A stretch of 34,837 bases of DNA from a virus. Shown here in pieces: positions 5,414 to 11,723 of this stretch. The position numbers and the translations under genes are program-made. Below the pieces are notes generated by a model. That model did no database searches. It saw only the letters and a list, made by a program, of their open reading frames with translations, and had not been told where the DNA came from. Every line of letters starts with the position of its first letter. Positions within the stretch are counted from its first letter, which is position 1. The DNA is taken from positions 1 through 34,837 of IMG/VR virus record IMGVR_UViG_3300045988_052159; one strand, written 5' to 3'.

Positions 5414-5729
5414 AATTATCGCAAATGGAGCAATCAGCATTCTTGTTATTTTGGCTGGTATCGCAGTCAAAGCGGTCAAGGACTACCTGGTTCAAAAAGG
5501 TGGAGAAAAGACCATCAAAATTGTTGAAATCCTTGCTAAAAATGCGGTCAATGCCGTGGAGCAGGTAGCAGCTGAAACAGGCTATAAAGGTCAAGAAAAG
5601 CTGGAGCAAGCCCGCACTAAAATCCGTGCTGAACTGACCAAATACAACATCAGCATGACTGACAAAGACTTAGACACATTTGTCGAGTCAGCTGTGAAGC
5701 AAATGAATGATGCTTGGAAAGGGGAATAG
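5397..5729 (+). CDS. Second holin-like protein (110 aa, one N-terminal TM helix plus charged helical tail)
   Basis: The RBS gaggag lies 8 nt upstream. A TM segment ([12 protein letters not shown]) is present. The gene overlaps holin 1 and abuts the lysin. Confidence 0.7.
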
Positions 5730-5731
5730 TT

Positions 5732-6676
5732 ATGGATATTGATACAAGCAGATTAAGAACTAATTTACCTCAGGTTGGTGTACAACCTTATCGACAAGTC
5801 CATGCACATTCAACAGGGAACCGTAACTCAACCGCTCAAAACGAAGCAGACTATCACTGGAGAAAGGACCCTGAACTAGGGTTCTTTTCTCATGTGGTTG
5901 GTAACGGTCGTGTCATGCAAGTAGGACCCGTAAATAACGGAAGTTGGGATGTTGGTGGTGGTTGGAATGCTGAGAGTTACGCAGCAGTCGAATTGATTGA
6001 AAGCCATGGCTCAAAAGAAGAGTTCATGCGTGATTACAAGCTCTATATTGAACTTTTGCGAAATCTTGCAGACGAAGCTGGTCTGCCGAAAACGCTTGAC
6101 TCTGATAGCCTTGCAGGCATCAAAACGCATCAGTATTGCACTAACAACCAACCAAACAACCACTCAGACCACGTTGACCCTTATCCATATTTAGCAAAAT
6201 GGGGAATCAGTCGCGAGCAATTTAAGAAAGATATTGAAGGTGGTCTGTCTGAAGCTAGCTGGAAACGTAATGAAACTGGCTGGTGGTGGGAAGAGTCGGA
6301 TGGTTCTTATCCGACAGACCGCTGGAAGAAAATCAATGGGGAGTGGTTCCGATTTGATAATCGTGGCTATTGCCTAATTAATCGTTGGTTTAATGATGGT
6401 AAAGACTGGTTCTATCTTGATAAACGTGGTGCGATGGTTACAGGCTGGATGTACATCAATAACCGCTGGTATTACTTCAAATCAGATGGGCGCATGGCCA
6501 AGGGTTGGGTGAAATACCGAGAAACCTGGTATTATCTTGACGAGAAGGATGGAGATATGAAATCCAATCAATTCGTTAAATATGGTAACGGCTGGTACTA
6601 CCTCAAACCAGATGGATCTATGGCAGACAAGCCAGAATTTACTGTTGAGCCAGACGGCTTGATCACTACAAAATAA
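5732..6676 (+). CDS. LytA-like N-acetylmuramoyl-L-alanine amidase with C-terminal choline-binding repeats (endolysin, 314 aa)
   Basis: The N-terminus ([19 protein letters not shown]...[18 protein letters not shown]...[27 protein letters not shown]) is near-identical in pattern to pneumococcal LytA. The C-terminus has GW/YY repeats ([29 protein letters not shown]) and the tail [15 protein letters not shown] 5732 is preferred over TTG 5714. Confidence 0.95.
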
Positions 6677-6718
6677 ATTTTAAATAAAGAAAGGAGATTC
6701 TATTTTTCTTCTTAATGA

Positions 6719-6747
6719 CCCGCAGGCAATAGCTTGCGGGCTTTTTT
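6719..6747 (+). terminator. Rho-independent terminator after the lysin
   Basis: The 9-bp stem cccgcaggc/gcttgcggg (one G-U pair) has the loop aata and is followed by tttttt. Confidence 0.8.
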
Positions 6748-6921
6748 GTTTGCTTTGGAACAAGAAAATATCTAACTGACCGACGTTGATGTCGGCCAGT
6801 TATAAAATAAATGATTTGTCTGAAAAATTGACTTGTTGACATCAACAATTAGCTTTATAAAGCGCATGGTTGCCAATTTTGTTGATGTTAACAAAGATGT
6901 GATTTTAACCATTTTTTTAAT

Positions 6922-6942
6922 GGATACAACAAAGGATACAAC
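6922..6942 (+). repeat. Arm-type repeat copy 1: ggatacaacaaaggatacaac (two GGATACAAC units)
   Basis: This 21-bp sequence is repeated perfectly at 7097-7117, on the other side of the putative core. Confidence 0.8.
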
Positions 6943-6977
6943 GAATCGCTCAAGTCCTATTTTAATAAGGTTTTTGA

Positions 6978-6994
6978 GACTCCCACCGGCTCCA
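6978..6994 (+). other. tRNA/tmRNA-like 3' end (T-arm 3' strand plus acceptor 3' strand), candidate attP core
   Basis: gactcccaccggctcca is a GC-rich island in AT-rich DNA. It reads as ..GACTCCCAC (T-stem) plus CGGCTCC (acceptor) plus A. The ..GCTCCA ending has U at the G3-U70 position, which is typical of tRNA-Ala and tmRNA. No complete cloverleaf is present. Confidence 0.55.
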
Positions 6995-7028
6995 TTATTT
7001 CTTTGCATTCTTTTGCGCATTCCTTGGT

Positions 7029-7060
7029 AAAACGTTGTTAAATCAACGTTTTTTATTTTT
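7029..7060 (+). terminator. Plus-strand rho-independent terminator about 35 nt downstream of the tRNA-like end
   Basis: The 9-bp stem aaaacgttg/caacgtttt has the loop ttaaat and is followed by a T-run (ttttatttttg). The strong T-tract is on the plus strand only. Confidence 0.65.
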
Positions 7061-7096
7061 GTCTTTGGTATTCCTTGGTATTCTTTTGCGAAAAAA

Positions 7097-7117
7097 GGAT
7101 ACAACAAAGGATACAAC
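7097..7117 (+). repeat. Arm-type repeat copy 2: ggatacaacaaaggatacaac, plus an inverted degenerate unit gtcgtatcc at 7124-7132
   Basis: Exact 21-bp copy of 6922-6942. It lies next to the integrase stop codon. Additional direct repeats are attccttggta (7019-7029 and 7070-7080) and attcttttgcg (7007-7017 and 7080-7090). Confidence 0.8.
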
Positions 7118-7131
7118 ATTTTTGTCGTATC

Positions 7132-8214
7132 CTAGAAATCTATGTACTTCGCAAAGCGTTCTCCAATGTCATCCTTTGCTTGCTTAGTTATGTGAGTATA
7201 AACGTTCATGGTTGTTTTTAAGTCAGAGTGTCCTAGACGATGTTGGACTTGCTTCAAAGTCATACCAGCATCAAAGCATAGACTAGCGTGTGTATGCCTG
7301 AAGCCGTGAATTTTAATCGGACGTAGGTCGCTTCCTTCAACAATTTTGATAAGCCATTTTCTGGGAAGAGTGCTTGGAATTGGTTTCTTAAATTCATTTT
7401 CAAAAATATATTTGGTATTTGGATTTTGTTTTCTCCATTTTTTCAAAATATTTTTTGTCTTTTTATCCAAGCTAATCAGTCTATTGCTACTGACGGTTTT
7501 GGTATTACCTATTTCTTCGCCTCCAAACCCCCTTGTAATAGCCTTATTTATGTCCAGAGTATTATCTGTCCAGTCACTCCATTCAAGGGCTAAAATCTCC
7601 CCTTTTCGAGCGCCTGTGAAGGCTAGAAGACGGAATAGAGTTATCTTCTCTAGATCCTTTGTCTTAGCAACAAGTTTCAAGAACTTTTGAAGTTCGTCTT
7701 TGCTGTAAAAGTCGCTCTTGTTATTTGATTTCTTTCTTGTTGATGTAATCACGCTATCAACTGGATTTGTATCAATGTAGCCATGCCTTATTGCGTATTT
7801 AAAAACATTATTCATCAAGCCCTTTAGCTTACGACCATAAACTAATTTCTTCGACCACTCATTGGCTTGTTCCTGCATTTGGAGCGGTGTTATCGTAGCT
7901 ATTTTTCGTTTTCCGAAAGCTGGATAGATGTGATTCTTGAAATTTCTAGATGTTTTGATGTAGGTGCTTTCTTGTACAGTTTCAGAATAATCTTCAAGCC
8001 ATCTTTTGGCAATTTCTTCTACTGTAATATCTTTTCTGTATTGTTCTCCATTTTCTATATCTTCTTGAAGTTGAAGTAGTGCTGCCCTTGCTTTGGCTTT
8101 TGTGGCAAATCCCTTTTTTCGAGCGTACTTACTTTTTCCGTTTTCTTTTCCGACATAAACGATGAAACCATAAGCCGTCTCACCGTTTTTCTTTTTATAA
8201 GACTTGATTTCCAT
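7132..8214 (-). CDS. int: Tyrosine-type site-specific integrase (360 aa)
   Basis: The protein has an N-terminal arm-binding type sequence (MEIKSYKKKNGETAYGF), a SAM-like core-binding region, and the catalytic motifs GARKGE, HGFRHTH and LGHSDLKTTMNVYTH. Confidence 0.95.
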   Translation of the reverse strand: MEIKSYKKKNGETAYGFIVYVGKENGKSKYARKKGFATKAKARAALLQLQEDIENGEQYRKDITVEEIAKRWLEDYSETVQESTYIKTSRNFKNHIYPAFGKRKIATITPLQMQEQANEWSKKLVYGRKLKGLMNNVFKYAIRHGYIDTNPVDSVITSTRKKSNNKSDFYSKDELQKFLKLVAKTKDLEKITLFRLLAFTGARKGEILALEWSDWTDNTLDINKAITRGFGGEEIGNTKTVSSNRLISLDKKTKNILKKWRKQNPNTKYIFENEFKKPIPSTLPRKWLIKIVEGSDLRPIKIHGFRHTHASLCFDAGMTLKQVQHRLGHSDLKTTMNVYTHITKQAKDDIGERFAKYIDF

Positions 8215-8290
8215 TGATTTTTACCTCATTTCTTGATAAAATGGGTATAAGAAAATGACCTTTTGAATGGTTATTTCTTATACATGATTT

Positions 8291-8340
8291 CCTCACACTC
8301 TCCTCGACCAAAATTTGAGTGTGGGGATTTTTTATTTTTT
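8291..8340 (+). terminator. Terminator-like hairpin between the HIRAN gene and the integrase; orientation ambiguous
   Basis: The 10-bp stem cctcacactc/gagtgtgggg (one G-U pair) has a 16-nt loop. The T-run (attttttatttttt) is on the plus strand only and overlaps the stop of the minus-strand gene. Confidence 0.4.
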
Positions 8341-9246
8341 GGCTAGGTGCCATATTGTTAAATCTAGATAATACGTTAATTCTTTTTCACGAGAAATAAC
8401 TCTCTCGGTTTCGATGTTTAGTGTTTTATATGGACCACCTCTACCAGTTAGGATTGCATCGTATCTGTAATTTGGATTAGCTATGTAAGATGAAATTTGT
8501 GATGCGATCACAGCTGGTAAGTATCCAACAAAGATATTATTCACTAAAACTTTGATAGCATTTTTATCATGCGGATTTGAAGGTTCTGGTAATAGTTGAA
8601 CGTCTACTGTTTTCAATTTATTGTATTTGTAAACAGGTTTATATGTTTCGAGCATATAAGATTTCAAAGATTTATTATCTTTTCCAAAATAATGGACACC
8701 CTTGGAAAGAAAATCAGCAGCAGCTTCGGCTTCTTCTTTATGATAATTTGTTCCCATTAACAAGAAGTCTTCTCGGAAAACAATTGTATCAATCTGTGGG
8801 CTGTAATTTTCAACTTTCTTCTTTTTCTCTCGATTTGTAGTTAAACGGCCAATAATGTAAGTTATAAAACCTGTAATGAACAAGAAGAAGCCGAGAGGCG
8901 GAAATAAAAATAGGAAAATAGCACCTATAACTATTAGTACAATACCAGTTTCTTTATAATCTTTTGCTGTGTATTTCTTTTTAACATTAGATGTCAGAAT
9001 AGATTTTTGTTTGTTTGTAACTACTTTTTTCTTTCTCTTTTTAGATGGTTTCAGCGAATCAGAAAGTCCAAATGTTGTCTTATGATAGACCTTGTTATAC
9101 ATGGCTTTCTTGGGATTCTTTATCCATCCCACGCCTTTCTTACCATATCCAGGGATAATAGCTTTTTTAGCCTGCCTTTTCCATTTGCTGGTAGTCCTAG
9201 CTTTTAGGCTTTTAGTTAGACTTGGTTTTCTCATTCCTATTTTCAT
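8332..9246 (-). CDS. Membrane-anchored HIRAN-domain protein (304 aa): basic N-terminal region, two TM helices, C-terminal HIRAN domain
   Basis: The HIRAN signature is LLPEPSNPHDKNAIKVLVNNIFVGYLPAVIASQISSYI. The hydrophobic hairpin is GIVLIVIGAIFLFLFPPLGFFLFITGFITYIIG. The N-terminal 100 aa are Lys/Arg-rich. The RBS aggag is present, and the start lies 13 nt after the immA stop on the same strand. Confidence 0.8.
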   Translation of the reverse strand: MKIGMRKPSLTKSLKARTTSKWKRQAKKAIIPGYGKKGVGWIKNPKKAMYNKVYHKTTFGLSDSLKPSKKRKKKVVTNKQKSILTSNVKKKYTAKDYKETGIVLIVIGAIFLFLFPPLGFFLFITGFITYIIGRLTTNREKKKKVENYSPQIDTIVFREDFLLMGTNYHKEEAEAAADFLSKGVHYFGKDNKSLKSYMLETYKPVYKYNKLKTVDVQLLPEPSNPHDKNAIKVLVNNIFVGYLPAVIASQISSYIANPNYRYDAILTGRGGPYKTLNIETERVISREKELTYYLDLTIWHLAKK

Positions 9247-9259
9247 TTTCTGCTCCTAA

Positions 9260-9640
9260 TCAACTAATCAATGAATAATATTCGTCAATGACCATTACTT
9301 CATCAGTGATGGTTTTTAATTTGTGTTTTTTCATGAAATTTAAATAGTTAAAAGATTGTTGATCATCTGAGTTTTTCAATTCTTCCTCGATCAATTGATG
9401 AATCATAATGCGATTTGCTTCGTTTTCACATTTTGTATGATTGTTTTTATAGAGAACAGGAGTGTGAGAAAGATGACCTAGTTCATGGTAGACAACACGT
9501 TTTATCGCTTCATCAGACAGTTTGTTATTTACAAAGATAGTTTTGATATCCTCGATATAAATGCCAGGACGTTGCCACAAATCTTTATCAAAGTAGTAAA
9601 GAGTTACTCCACAAGATTTCACAAAGTCGTCAATCTGCAT
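9260..9640 (-). CDS. immA: ImmA/IrrE-family zinc metalloprotease (126 aa)
   Basis: The HEXXH motif is VYHELGHLSH. The gene is small and lies directly downstream of the XRE repressor on the same strand. Confidence 0.85.
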   Translation of the reverse strand: MQIDDFVKSCGVTLYYFDKDLWQRPGIYIEDIKTIFVNNKLSDEAIKRVVYHELGHLSHTPVLYKNNHTKCENEANRIMIHQLIEEELKNSDDQQSFNYLNFMKKHKLKTITDEVMVIDEYYSLIS

Positions 9641-9643
9641 AGG

Positions 9644-10003
9644 CTATCTACCTCTCAAGTATATTTCTATGATGTTTTGAATCGCATCAATATCTTCTTC
9701 TGTAAGTGGCTTACCATCGAATGTCTTTGCATTCTCTGCCATCTTTCGGAGATCGTCAGACGTGTATCCTGCGATTGTATCATTGTTTGCAATAGCAGGA
9801 TTATCAGTGCGTCCGAGCAGATAGTCAGTGGATACGTTGAAGTAGTCTGCGATTTCTTGGAGACGGTCAGATTTAGGAGTTTTTTCTTTCAAAGTATAGA
9901 GGTAATTTATACTATAGCCTAAGTCTTCGGCAACTTTTTGAAGACTTATTCCTCGTTTTTGAGCAAGCTCCTTAATTTTTTCAAGTGTTGAAAACATTGT
10001 CAT
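9644..10003 (-). CDS. XRE-family (cI-like/ImmR-like) phage repressor (about 119 aa)
   Basis: The HTH is KRGISLQKVAEDLGYSINYLYTLK. The gene is divergent from the Cro-like gene. ATG 10003 or 9997 is preferred over TTG 10027. Confidence 0.85.
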   Translation of the reverse strand: MTMFSTLEKIKELAQKRGISLQKVAEDLGYSINYLYTLKEKTPKSDRLQEIADYFNVSTDYLLGRTDNPAIANNDTIAGYTSDDLRKMAENAKTFDGKPLTEEDIDAIQNIIEIYLRGR

Positions 10004-10027
10004 AGTACCTTTTCTAAGACATGACAA

Positions 10028-10298
10028 AAAATATTTTATAAAAAAGTGTTATTTTCTATTGACAAAAATAATACTAAAGTGTAAAATAGTTTTTGTAAGT
10101 TAATGAGTTAGTAAAAAACAGAGTTAAAACTTATCTAAAAATAAATAGCTTTGGCGAGCAAGAAAATTGATAGATATAATGTTTTATCAAGGTTTTTAAT
10201 TATGCTTTCATTTTACACTAAGGTGTAAAAGTTGTCAAGCATTTTATAAAATAATTTACTAACTCTTTAACTCTATTAAAACCAAAAGGAGGAGGAAC
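10028..10298. promoter_or_regulatory. Lysis-lysogeny switch region with divergent promoters and operator-like repeats
   Basis: Plus-strand candidates are TTGACA (10059-10064), 17 nt, TAAAAT (10082-10087), and TTGGCG (10151-10156), 18 nt, TATAAT (10175-10180). A minus-strand TTGTCA overlaps the first -35. A perfect palindrome ttttacac-taag-gtgtaaaa lies at 10211-10230, and a half-site gtgtaaaa at 10079-10086 overlaps the first -10. Confidence 0.65.
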
Positions 10299-10508
10299 AT
10301 GAGCCAACAACATCGCAAATGGATTGAGCTTGTAAAAGAGCGAATTGAGAAACGTGGATGGTCACAAACGGACTTGGGCATTGTTGTAGGTGTTAGTCCA
10401 TCAGCCATCACACAGCTGCTTAAAGATGGAAAAGGGAGCGATGACTTGAAGCTTCGCATTAACAAGAAGTTGCGAATCAATGAGTCGTGGGAGAAATTTG
10501 AGGAGTAG
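10299..10508 (+). CDS. Cro-like XRE HTH protein, copy 1 (69 aa)
   Basis: The HTH is WSQTDLGIVVGVSPSAITQLL. The RBS is aaaggaggagg. It is the first gene of the rightward early operon. Confidence 0.8.
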   Translation: MSQQHRKWIELVKERIEKRGWSQTDLGIVVGVSPSAITQLLKDGKGSDDLKLRINKKLRINESWEKFEE

Positions 10509-11513: not shown

Positions 11514-11723
11514 ATGAGCCAACAACATAAAAAGTGGATTCAGCTCGTCAAAGACAAATTGAATTCAGAAGGAATGACACAAACACATCTTGCCCGTGCT
11601 TGTGGAGTTAAGAAACCGACCATTTCAGAATTGCTGAAGTATGGTAAAGGTAGCGACAGATTAAAAAACCGAGTATGCGATGTCCTAGGCATCGATGAAA
11701 GCTGGGTTGATTTAGGAGAGTAG
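11514..11723 (+). CDS. Cro-like XRE HTH protein, copy 2 (69 aa), paralogue of 10299..10508
   Basis: It has the same length and the same first five residues (MSQQH), plus shared KWI..VK and GKGSD..L motifs and an ESW motif. The first 15 nt are identical, and so is the 19-nt 3' junction gagtaggaggaaggaaatg. Confidence 0.8.
   Translation: MSQQHKKWIQLVKDKLNSEGMTQTHLARACGVKKPTISELLKYGKGSDRLKNRVCDVLGIDESWVDLGE

Follow-up and report, generated by a model that had tools for sequence, protein, structure and literature searches.

The small membrane exclusion proteins Sie2009 (lactococcal P335 phages), Ltp (Streptococcus thermophilus phage TP-J34), gp15 of HK97 and Imm of T4 act at DNA entry; as a group, they are encoded in the slot between the integrase gene (int) and the repressor gene and are expressed in lysogens. 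We know of no DNA-binding domain in any of these proteins. Here, we describe a gene located between int and repressor in the viral IMG/VR record IMGVR_UViG_3300045988_052159 (34,837 nucleotides, this whole stretch being called the window below), whose 304-amino-acid (aa) product shares this genomic position and a predicted membrane location with the superinfection exclusion (Sie) proteins. The gene is almost certainly an orthologue of thaL, which is one of the accessory genes in the lysogeny module of mitis-group streptococcal prophages; its product, ThaL, combines a predicted membrane hairpin, a basic N-terminal module (N-module) and a HIRAN domain, and may bind DNA 3' ends at the membrane.

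The gene was named thaL by Kwun, Ion, Apagyi and Croucher (Mol Biol Evol 2025; PMC12637031), and in phiRMV8 it accompanies a C1-type regulator (PMC12637031). The initial annotation had taken this combination of domains to be undescribed, which was wrong, as pneumophage records (FR671408, FR671409 and the phiARI series) already label the orthologues 'Phage HIRAN domain protein' (phages 23782 and 11865) or 'HIRAN domain protein' (phiARI series). Its remark that no described defence protein matches ThaL survives in part: no PADLOC, NCBIfam or PHROG defence family claims the protein, but the protein itself had already been annotated and named. Likewise, no exclusion family was found among the PHROG, PADLOC and NCBIfam matches of ThaL, and its PHROG family is one of 'unknown function'. 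We assigned orthology through the IPP45 and phage 23782 proteins, which lie behind C1 repressors, and the thaL of phiRMV8 was compared by the description in the paper. The annotated thaL family and the present gene have the same transmembrane (TM) and HIRAN architecture, the same lysogeny slot and 86-95% aa identity. The thaL genes of phiRMV8 and IPP45 follow a C1-type repressor (at a distance of 12 nt in IPP45), whereas here thaL follows an ImmR-ImmA pair.

The only slot genes with experimental data are szaL and spaL, which occupy the same slot in ImmAR-type modules and share the 'associated with lysogeny' naming; both affect how sensitive the prophage is to mitomycin C and competence induction, as well as the size or timing of the burst (PMC12637031). 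SzaL and SpaL are described as surface-exposed zinc proteins, whereas the HIRAN domain of ThaL is predicted to be cytoplasmic.

A similar layout is found in AbiP, a lactococcal phage-defence protein, and in PdpSau, which is encoded by Staphylococcus aureus prophages. PdpSau lets DNA enter, blocks its replication and causes membrane depolarisation, and its cytoplasmic domain is positively charged. ThaL is predicted to share with both proteins a membrane anchor joined to a cytoplasmic nucleic-acid-binding domain resembling the oligonucleotide/oligosaccharide-binding (OB) fold, with no enzymatic domain; the likeness is one of possible working mode only. In ThaL, this layout consists of the TM hairpin and the OB-like HIRAN barrel, whose cytoplasmic side is suggested by charge and by the architectures of relatives. 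Homology to PdpSau was rejected (hhalign probability 0.1%), and the two proteins also differ in that PdpSau has one N-terminal TM segment and sits after the lysin gene, not behind the repressor.

With regard to the HIRAN domain itself, ThaL has the same beta-barrel fold as HLTF (PDB 4s0n, 4xzf, 5bnh and 6kcs), yeast Rad5 and lp_0118 (3k2y), and it shares with HLTF a near-identical core motif, (D/E)P(N/S)NP(Y/H)DKNAIKV, in addition to the 3'-OH-reading Asp and the stacking aromatic residues. Unlike HLTF and Rad5, it carries neither a SWI/SNF helicase nor a RING domain and is fused to the membrane hairpin and the N-module. The HIRAN proteins associated with HipA (PDC-M03B) are likewise stand-alone bacterial HIRAN proteins of mobile elements or defence islands; they are paired with a kinase, whereas ThaL has no kinase and possesses additional membrane and N-terminal modules.

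Four points described below may be new: how large the N-module family is and how its modules are combined, the recurrent anchoring of HIRAN, the conserved 3'-end pocket, and the coupling to immunity genes over 12-14 nt.

Architecture of ThaL

The product matches phrog_4721 over its full length (304/304, E = 2e-193), and given this match and hundreds of homologues, the reality of the gene is far above chance. The gene and the parts of its product are as follows, with confidence given as the predicted local distance difference test (pLDDT) of AlphaFold2 (AF2) models:

8332-9246, minus strand: thaL open reading frame (ORF), 304 aa, from the ORF list
9052-9246, minus strand: conserved basic N-module, aa 1-65, with 18 Lys/Arg and zero acidic residues in its first 60 aa
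8953-9051, minus strand: Lys/Ser-rich basic linker, aa 66-98, by charge count; variable among relatives, pLDDT ~60
8842-8952, minus strand: two-helix hydrophobic hairpin, aa 99-135, by hydropathy and AF2; predicted N-in/C-in
8347-8787, minus strand: HIRAN domain, aa 154-300, by Pfam (PF08797), AF2 and Foldseek

The three-part protein that the initial annotation had proposed, with a basic N-terminus, a TM hairpin and a HIRAN domain, was recovered by charge count, hydropathy, AF2, Pfam and fold search. Its statement that no helicase, nuclease or ligase domain is attached was also correct, since no enzymatic domain was found.

The identity of the HIRAN domain is indicated by both profile and structure searches. 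The Pfam model PF08797 matched aa 214-271 with 40 bits (E = 3.5e-10), above its gathering score of 24.7, and the isolated domain reached 42 bits. In the first full-length AF2 model, the HIRAN half was poor (pLDDT 50-80) and its Foldseek match to the HLTF HIRAN domain was weak (E = 0.02). A profile built from the C-terminal half gave 192 relatives, and modelling residues 150-304 separately with a 112-sequence alignment removed this weakness, resulting in a pLDDT of 96.2 and a predicted template-modelling score (pTM) of 0.87. The best 15 Foldseek matches in the PDB were all HIRAN domains (HLTF with or without DNA, and lp_0118 of L. plantarum) with a probability of 1.00. Their template-modelling scores, normalised to the target, were 0.35-0.60, values that are lowered by a two-helix insertion of ~35 aa in ThaL. 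Relative to HLTF, the AF2 model contains two extra helices (aa 166-181 and 191-201) between strands 1 and 2.

A search of viral structures (BFVD) with the ThaL HIRAN domain also returned phage HIRAN proteins. The best match was A0A8S5T5A9 (E = 1e-9), a 390-aa 'DUF4236 domain-containing protein' in which DUF4236 is fused to HIRAN; DUF4236 may thus be another N-terminal partner module for the ThaL-type HIRAN subfamily.

In HLTF, D94 reads the 3'-OH, while Y72 and Y93 pinch the final two bases (PMC5773155). HMMER aligned HLTF DPNNPYDKNAIKV with ThaL EPSNPHDKNAIKV, which makes D227 the equivalent of D94 and H226 that of Y93, where His replaces Tyr; Y168 was equated with Y72 by motif position only (GTNYH of ThaL versus GLRYY of HLTF). 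The conservation of these residues among the 112 subfamily members is as follows:

D227 (HLTF D94): Asp in 109 of 112
Y168 (HLTF Y72): Tyr or Phe in 104 of 112
H226 (HLTF Y93): His, Tyr or Phe in 86 of 112

A GG-x-Y-K motif at ThaL 270-274 is also almost invariant in these 112 sequences. Given that the residues equivalent to those of HLTF are conserved, the 3'-end-binding pocket of HIRAN appears to be retained in ThaL.

The N-terminal part of ThaL is highly basic. Residues 1-100 include 32 Lys and Arg against 3 Asp and Glu, a net charge of +29, and the N-module is helical in the AF2 model (pLDDT 68-85). It is followed, beyond the linker, by a single hydrophobic run of 35 aa (residues 101-135) with PPLG in its centre; Kyte-Doolittle windows exceed 1.6 throughout residues 96-136, and the full-length AF2 model contains two helices here (94-114 and 116-146) with a pLDDT of ~97. 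Lys and Arg are abundant on either side of the hairpin (KKKYTAKDYKE precedes it and GRLTTNREKKKK follows it), and its PPLG turn bears no charge. Applied to these basic flanks and the strongly basic N-terminus, the positive-inside rule gives an N-in/C-in orientation, which would place HIRAN in the cytoplasm. We therefore infer that ThaL is a hairpin membrane protein with both ends in the cytoplasm. ThaL itself did not match the Pfam TM2 model (PF05154) at E ≤ 0.1, and the segment equivalent to the hairpin matched it in 7 of 100 N-module relatives and in 4 of 112 HIRAN relatives.

Genomic setting and relatives

The genes and signals around thaL are listed below. Here and later, promoter-like and terminator-like sites are consensus matches, which are no proof of activity.

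9644-10027, minus strand: ImmR-type helix-turn-helix (HTH) repressor, leading gene of the leftward operon (HTH_19 and HTH_3; phrog_8)
9260-9640, minus strand: immA-like metalloprotease, directly upstream of thaL (Peptidase_M78, E = 1.8e-8; phrog_87 metallo-protease, E = 6e-31)
9253-9257, minus strand: Shine-Dalgarno sequence AGGAG, read from the sequence, within the immA-thaL spacer
7132-8214, minus strand: tyrosine integrase, downstream neighbour of thaL (Phage_integrase, E = 2.5e-22, with arm-binding and SAM-like domains; phrog_1)
10210-10238, minus strand: promoter-like site TTGACA-17-TAAAAT (11/12), which could drive repressor-immA-thaL

These Pfam and PHROG assignments agree with the initial placement of the gene in the accessory slot between integrase and repressor, and the start of thaL lies, as stated there, 13 nt past immA on the same strand. 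The immA stop codon TGA occupies 9262-9260 and the thaL ATG 9246-9244, which leaves a spacer of exactly 13 nt (9259-9247; TTAGGAGCAGAAA). The repressor stop is separated from the immA ATG by 3 nt, and for the repressor itself a start at the ATG at 10003 is more likely. No terminator-like site was listed by the motif scan on the minus strand between 10027 and 8332. The 13-nt coupling together with the lack of a listed internal terminator suggests that thaL is probably made in lysogens from a repressor-immA-thaL transcript.

In the gap between repressor and cro (10028-10298), the leftward site 10238-10210 faces rightward promoter-like sites at 10059-10087 and 10151-10180. The leftward site is placed to the right of the rightward ones, so that divergent transcripts would overlap by ~150 nt.

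Judged by its matches, the window comes from a temperate phage of mitis-group streptococci: all 70 of the megablast matches of the window region were Streptococcus phages. The GC content of thaL is 0.329, compared with 0.318 for immA, 0.31-0.38 for the whole lysogeny and early region (7-12 kb) and 0.40 for the whole window. Since the neighbouring genes are equally AT-rich, AT-richness says nothing specific about thaL, and the initial argument that it marks an acquired moron fails. The DNA homology to pneumophages, however, ends at the borders of the ORF (query 1318-2247, corresponding to window 8317-9246), which points to thaL as an exchangeable cassette.

Full-length genes 86-89% identical to ThaL were found by tblastn in S. 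pneumoniae prophages. A large protein collection contained hundreds of relatives with 71-95% identity from S. mitis and S. pneumoniae, named 'HIRAN domain-containing protein'; the nearest cluster (P0001) is 95% identical, and P0002, a cluster built at 90% identity, has 677 member sequences from ENA assemblies.

We surveyed the setting of HIRAN genes in IMG/VR by fetching 80 loci with the HIRAN profile, in which 78 HIRAN ORFs were scored. Neighbours were scored by phmmer with HTH, ImmA and recombinase seeds from annotated loci, and owing to this seed-based detection the context counts for distant relatives are lower bounds. The link to immunity genes was complete among the orthologues (≥86% identity): all 14 lie on the same strand 12-14 nt behind an ImmA-like gene (5) or a C1-type HTH gene (9). 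Moreover, the integrase gene follows 121-176 nt downstream in 13 of them, and the contig of the remaining one ends early. Among all 78 ORFs, at least 45 are preceded on their own strand by an HTH or ImmA gene no more than 700 nt away, at least 42 have a recombinase gene downstream, and at least 37 have both. On the Pfam-annotated contigs of three distant members, the gene adjoins an HTH gene in phage genomes, directly downstream and on the same strand in 2 of the 3. Abi_2 genes, as well as Schlafen/AlbA_2 with PemK, also occur among the neighbours of relatives.

The 78 HIRAN ORFs differ in how the domain is anchored:

N-module and hairpin: 14 of 78
N-terminal TM: 17 of 78
C-terminal TM: 14 of 78
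No strong TM, many amphipathic: 33 of 78

A strong TM anchor is therefore present in 45 of the 78, and it is of at least three unrelated kinds. Some relatives start with HIRAN, lack a hydrophobic leader and carry the hairpin at the C-terminus (P0322, P0324, P0360, P0361, P0384, L038, L039 and others). Others begin with one N-terminal TM segment followed directly by a Lys run, or have amphipathic N-termini of the MGLFSRLFSRK type or Trp-rich N-termini. Most simply read, all these anchor layouts would put HIRAN inside the cell. In the 112 HIRAN subfamily members, Pfam detected HIRAN in every one (112/112), and otherwise TM2, a weak holin-like match and one weak low-complexity repeat; no enzymatic domain was found among them.

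The N-module belongs to a much larger family. A HMMER search of 1.84 billion representatives (E ≤ 0.001, clusters at 50% identity) returned 1701 clusters of ThaL relatives, nearly all of which match residues 1 to ~65 only. Their consensus, MK-G-RKPS-KKS-KARTTGK-KR--KKA--PGYGKKGMGWIKNPKKA-YNKVY-KTT, includes ~20 near-invariant positions (M1, K2, G4, R6, P8, T18, T19, K23, R24, K27, P32, Y34, G35, K37, G38, G40, P45, Y50, N51 and Y54). No Pfam or NCBIfam model matched the N-module, and a profile search against the PDB gave only insignificant matches to membrane transporters, through the hydrophobic segment. Among 50,697 phage records, tblastn found the N-module in 95, across the Firmicutes. Its identity is 55-79% among phages of Streptococcus, Enterococcus, Lactococcus, Clostridium and Lactobacillus, and 45-48% in those of Paenibacillus and Geobacillus; all of these phage homologues are annotated as hypothetical. 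The module is also found as a stand-alone 66-aa ORF (phiEf11_0033 and Dub35A_004) and in the streptococcal satellite phages Javan390, Javan395 and Javan412.

In most members, the N-module is followed by a hydrophobic hairpin of ~40 aa, after which the protein either ends or continues with a variable C-terminus. Pfam analysis of 100 N-module representatives revealed HIRAN in 18, TM2 in 7 and Ada_Zn_binding in 3, along with single cases of an RNase_T exonuclease (P0159), SNase with Ada-Zn (P0182), SAP/HeH (P0233) and a double zinc ribbon (P0180). In this family, the heads are thus predominantly DNA-directed. The SNase paralogue lies in the order S24 repressor, X, P0182, Abi_2, integrase, and the RNase_T paralogue shares an integrative element with PemK and a Schlafen/AlbA_2 gene. 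The SAP paralogue is found in an ordinary chromosomal neighbourhood, which indicates that some N-module members are not on mobile elements.

The thaL slot itself contains natural variants: the core only (SM1 gp2, 146 aa), the core followed by a separate Abi_2 gene (IPP16), and a soluble HIRAN protein only (S. pyogenes Javan467 and S. mitis Javan330). The order N-module member, Abi_2 (PF07751), integrase was seen in two unrelated prophages, IPP16 (L012, 3001-4624) and L015 (4001-6411), which suggests that the membrane core protein and an abortive-infection gene form a recurring pair.

Other features of the window

Several other features were identified in the window, of which the first two adjoin the 3' end of thaL:

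8250-8345, plus strand: convergent small RNA and terminator module, Spy779816-like (Rfam RF02589, 43.5 bits, E = 4.8e-5)
8214-8242, plus strand: promoter-like site of the small RNA, by consensus; its -35 box overlaps the int start codon
11007-11456, minus strand: second gene on the repressor strand, located within the rightward early region; its 149-aa product is hydrophobic at the N-terminus and contains a coiled-coil (phrog_2542, unknown function)
10299-10508 and 11514-11723, plus strand: paralogous cro-like HTH genes of 69 aa, 51% identical, which bracket the 11007-11456 gene
5714-6676, plus strand: endolysin, immediately left of the integrase (phrog_1110, E = 1e-145)

The Spy779816-like RNA folds into two hairpins and a U-run (z = -4.6). 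The terminator of this RNA and the stop codon of thaL overlap, and the RNA lies antisense to the int leader. Spy779816 (RF02589) was found at the syntenic site of S. pyogenes Javan467 with 82.8 bits (gathering score 67), between the stop of the HIRAN gene and int, on the opposite strand. The RNA probably insulates int from read-through of the operon, controls int by antisense, or both. The label 'ctRNA_pT181' of the phiARI records was not reproduced, Rfam giving Spy779816 for the intergenic RNA.

The 11007-11456 gene has its own promoter-like site (11551-11524) and a terminator-like site (10974-10956), and the region looks like an inserted moron or a duplicated switch module. The gap between endolysin and integrase (6677-7131) contains terminator-like hairpins at 6719-6740 (plus strand), 6802-6773 and 7133-7108 (both minus strand), and attP presumably lies in this interval of ~450 nt. 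Overall, the window (34.8 kb) has the appearance of an entire phage genome in circularly permuted form.

Possible roles of ThaL in lysogens

We propose that ThaL is a membrane-tethered 3'-end binder, made in lysogens, that would cap incoming DNA, a reading to which we give a probability of about 0.35. The protein would be translated from the repressor-immA-thaL transcript and would thus be present in lysogens, its 3'-end-binding head being held at the inner face of the membrane. There, it would meet DNA that enters end-first, chiefly the front end of the genome of a superinfecting phage and perhaps also single-stranded DNA taken up in transformation. By capping the 3' end, it would hinder circularisation, replication or recombination of the incoming DNA, and the basic N-module would probably add non-specific binding to nucleic acids or anionic lipids. 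The recurrent and independently evolved anchoring of the HIRAN subfamily suggests that membrane proximity is the point, and the presence of nucleases in place of HIRAN on the same core suggests that the heads act on DNA and do not merely sense it. The DNA most likely to show an end first at the inner membrane face is incoming DNA, and interception or capping is for this reason ranked first.

Several points weigh against this proposal. Kwun et al. mention thaL once, without a phenotype (PMC12637031), and the sole functional data for pneumophage slot genes, those on szaL and spaL, concern activation and burst timing, not exclusion (PMC12637031). A non-catalytic binder would need to act stoichiometrically, and the route by which ThaL would reach the site of DNA entry is not obvious. 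Moreover, the topology of ThaL is a prediction based on the positive-inside rule and AF2. The soluble HIRAN-only proteins that occupy the same slot in S. pyogenes prophages indicate that the membrane anchor is not always required, and the existence of the core-only form SM1 gp2 indicates an independent function for the N-module and hairpin. With respect to known systems, the tblastn search with the N-module returned few lactococcal records, and neither Tuc2009 nor TP901-1 was among the matches listed (60 of 95); a link between ThaL and Sie2009 was dropped, as no relation was detected among these matches. Finally, the hhalign probability of 0.1% quoted above for PdpSau was obtained with the HIRAN-subfamily profile against phage 53 ORF016.

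It seems rather unlikely that ThaL is an induction modulator like SzaL and SpaL, which would read DNA-end or single-stranded DNA signals (damage, competence) and tune the activation, excision or lysis timing of its own prophage, with no action on foreign DNA. This would fit the slot that thaL shares with szaL and spaL, whose disruption changes the sensitivity to mitomycin C and to the competence-stimulating peptide (CSP), as well as burst size or timing (PMC12637031). It would also fit the presumed shared transcript with ImmR and ImmA, and the 3' ends bound by HIRAN are a natural signal of stalled forks or imported single-stranded DNA. However, the szaL and spaL data do not cover thaL itself, and the cassette is found behind both C1-type and ImmAR-type regulators and is therefore not tied to one regulatory circuit. 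Swappable nuclease heads are hard to square with signalling, and this reading does not explain why a sensor of chromosomal damage should be membrane-bound.

Abortive infection (Abi) of the AbiP/PdpSau type, which we consider unlikely, would divide the work between the two halves of the protein: HIRAN would sense phage DNA ends or replication intermediates, and the N-module and hairpin would oligomerise, depolarise or permeabilise the membrane and kill the cell. PdpSau, with its membrane anchor and cytoplasmic OB-fold-like domain, provides a precedent for this layout, and HIRAN is an OB-like barrel, as required. In addition, the N-module and hairpin form the most conserved part of the protein, also occur alone and are in this sense effector-like, a few HIRAN relatives have TM2 or holin-like segments, and Abi_2 genes adjoin family members. 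Nevertheless, there is no homology to PdpSau, the alternative heads RNase_T and SNase look like effectors and not sensors, and a hairpin made constitutively in lysogens would need tight control of its toxicity. The soluble HIRAN-only versions in the same slot do not fit this scheme either.

A role restricted to transformation appears improbable. Here, ThaL would capture incoming single-stranded DNA by its 3' end on emergence from ComEC during transformation and thereby lower the recombination that deletes the prophage ('anti-curing'). Uptake in the pneumococcus proceeds 3' to 5', the 3' end arriving first at the membrane (PMC3764208, citing Mejean and Claverys 1988), and transformation removes prophages from pneumococci efficiently, a loss against which the prophages have evolved counter-measures (PMC12637031). 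The conserved HIRAN pocket and the concentration of full-length ThaL orthologues in naturally competent mitis-group streptococci are in agreement with this. On the other hand, anchored HIRAN relatives in the same slot are widespread in other Firmicute phages, which suggests a more general target, and phiRMV8, which carries thaL, is deleted efficiently, with no transformation block reported by Kwun et al. (PMC12637031).

It is very unlikely that ThaL serves the phage's own DNA metabolism by tethering replicating or excised DNA ends to the membrane. Such a function would resemble that of phi29 p16.7. A membrane anchor with a DNA-binding head would suit it, and the gene is conserved in many related phages, but thaL lies in the lysogeny operon on the repressor strand, outside the early lytic and replication module, and it is dispensable, as close phages have core-only, HIRAN-only or unrelated genes in the slot. 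That HIRAN is here part of a HipA-like kinase toxin-antitoxin or candidate defence pair (PADLOC PDC-M03), as weak PADLOC matches to PDC-M03B (E = 7e-7 to 1e-5) and the HIRAN proteins paired with HipA-like kinases as predicted antitoxin or defence components (PMC11706625) might suggest, is effectively excluded, because these matches cover the HIRAN core only (aa 169-263) and not the whole profile, the neighbours are ImmA and integrase with no kinase in the window, and no kinase was detected beside the 14 IMG/VR orthologues.

Capping of incoming 3' ends by ThaL could be one case of a broader principle, although we regard this extension as doubtful. The N-module with its TM hairpin (~1700 clusters) would represent an unrecognised class of proteins of prophages and mobile elements that stations interchangeable DNA-directed heads at the inner side of the membrane in order to intercept entering DNA, the heads being a HIRAN clamp for 3' ends, a DEDD exonuclease, SNase, SAP or Ada-Zn. 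Where mitis-group streptococci are naturally competent, members with HIRAN would, in addition, cap transforming single-stranded DNA at its leading 3' end and so protect the prophage from 'chromosomal curing'.

The conserved N-module is among the larger phage protein families without any domain model. Experimental handles are provided by the pocket residues D227 and Y168, by the natural core-only and HIRAN-only variants and by the nuclease-headed paralogues. Given that thaL is very common and has relatives in many Firmicute phages, one phenotype would annotate many genes. If the proposed capture of incoming DNA is true, it would be a non-enzymatic means by which a prophage controls which DNA becomes established in its host. 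Its targets would be rival phages or, in the pneumococcus and its relatives, the transforming DNA that deletes prophages, which would bear on the arms race between prophages and competence.

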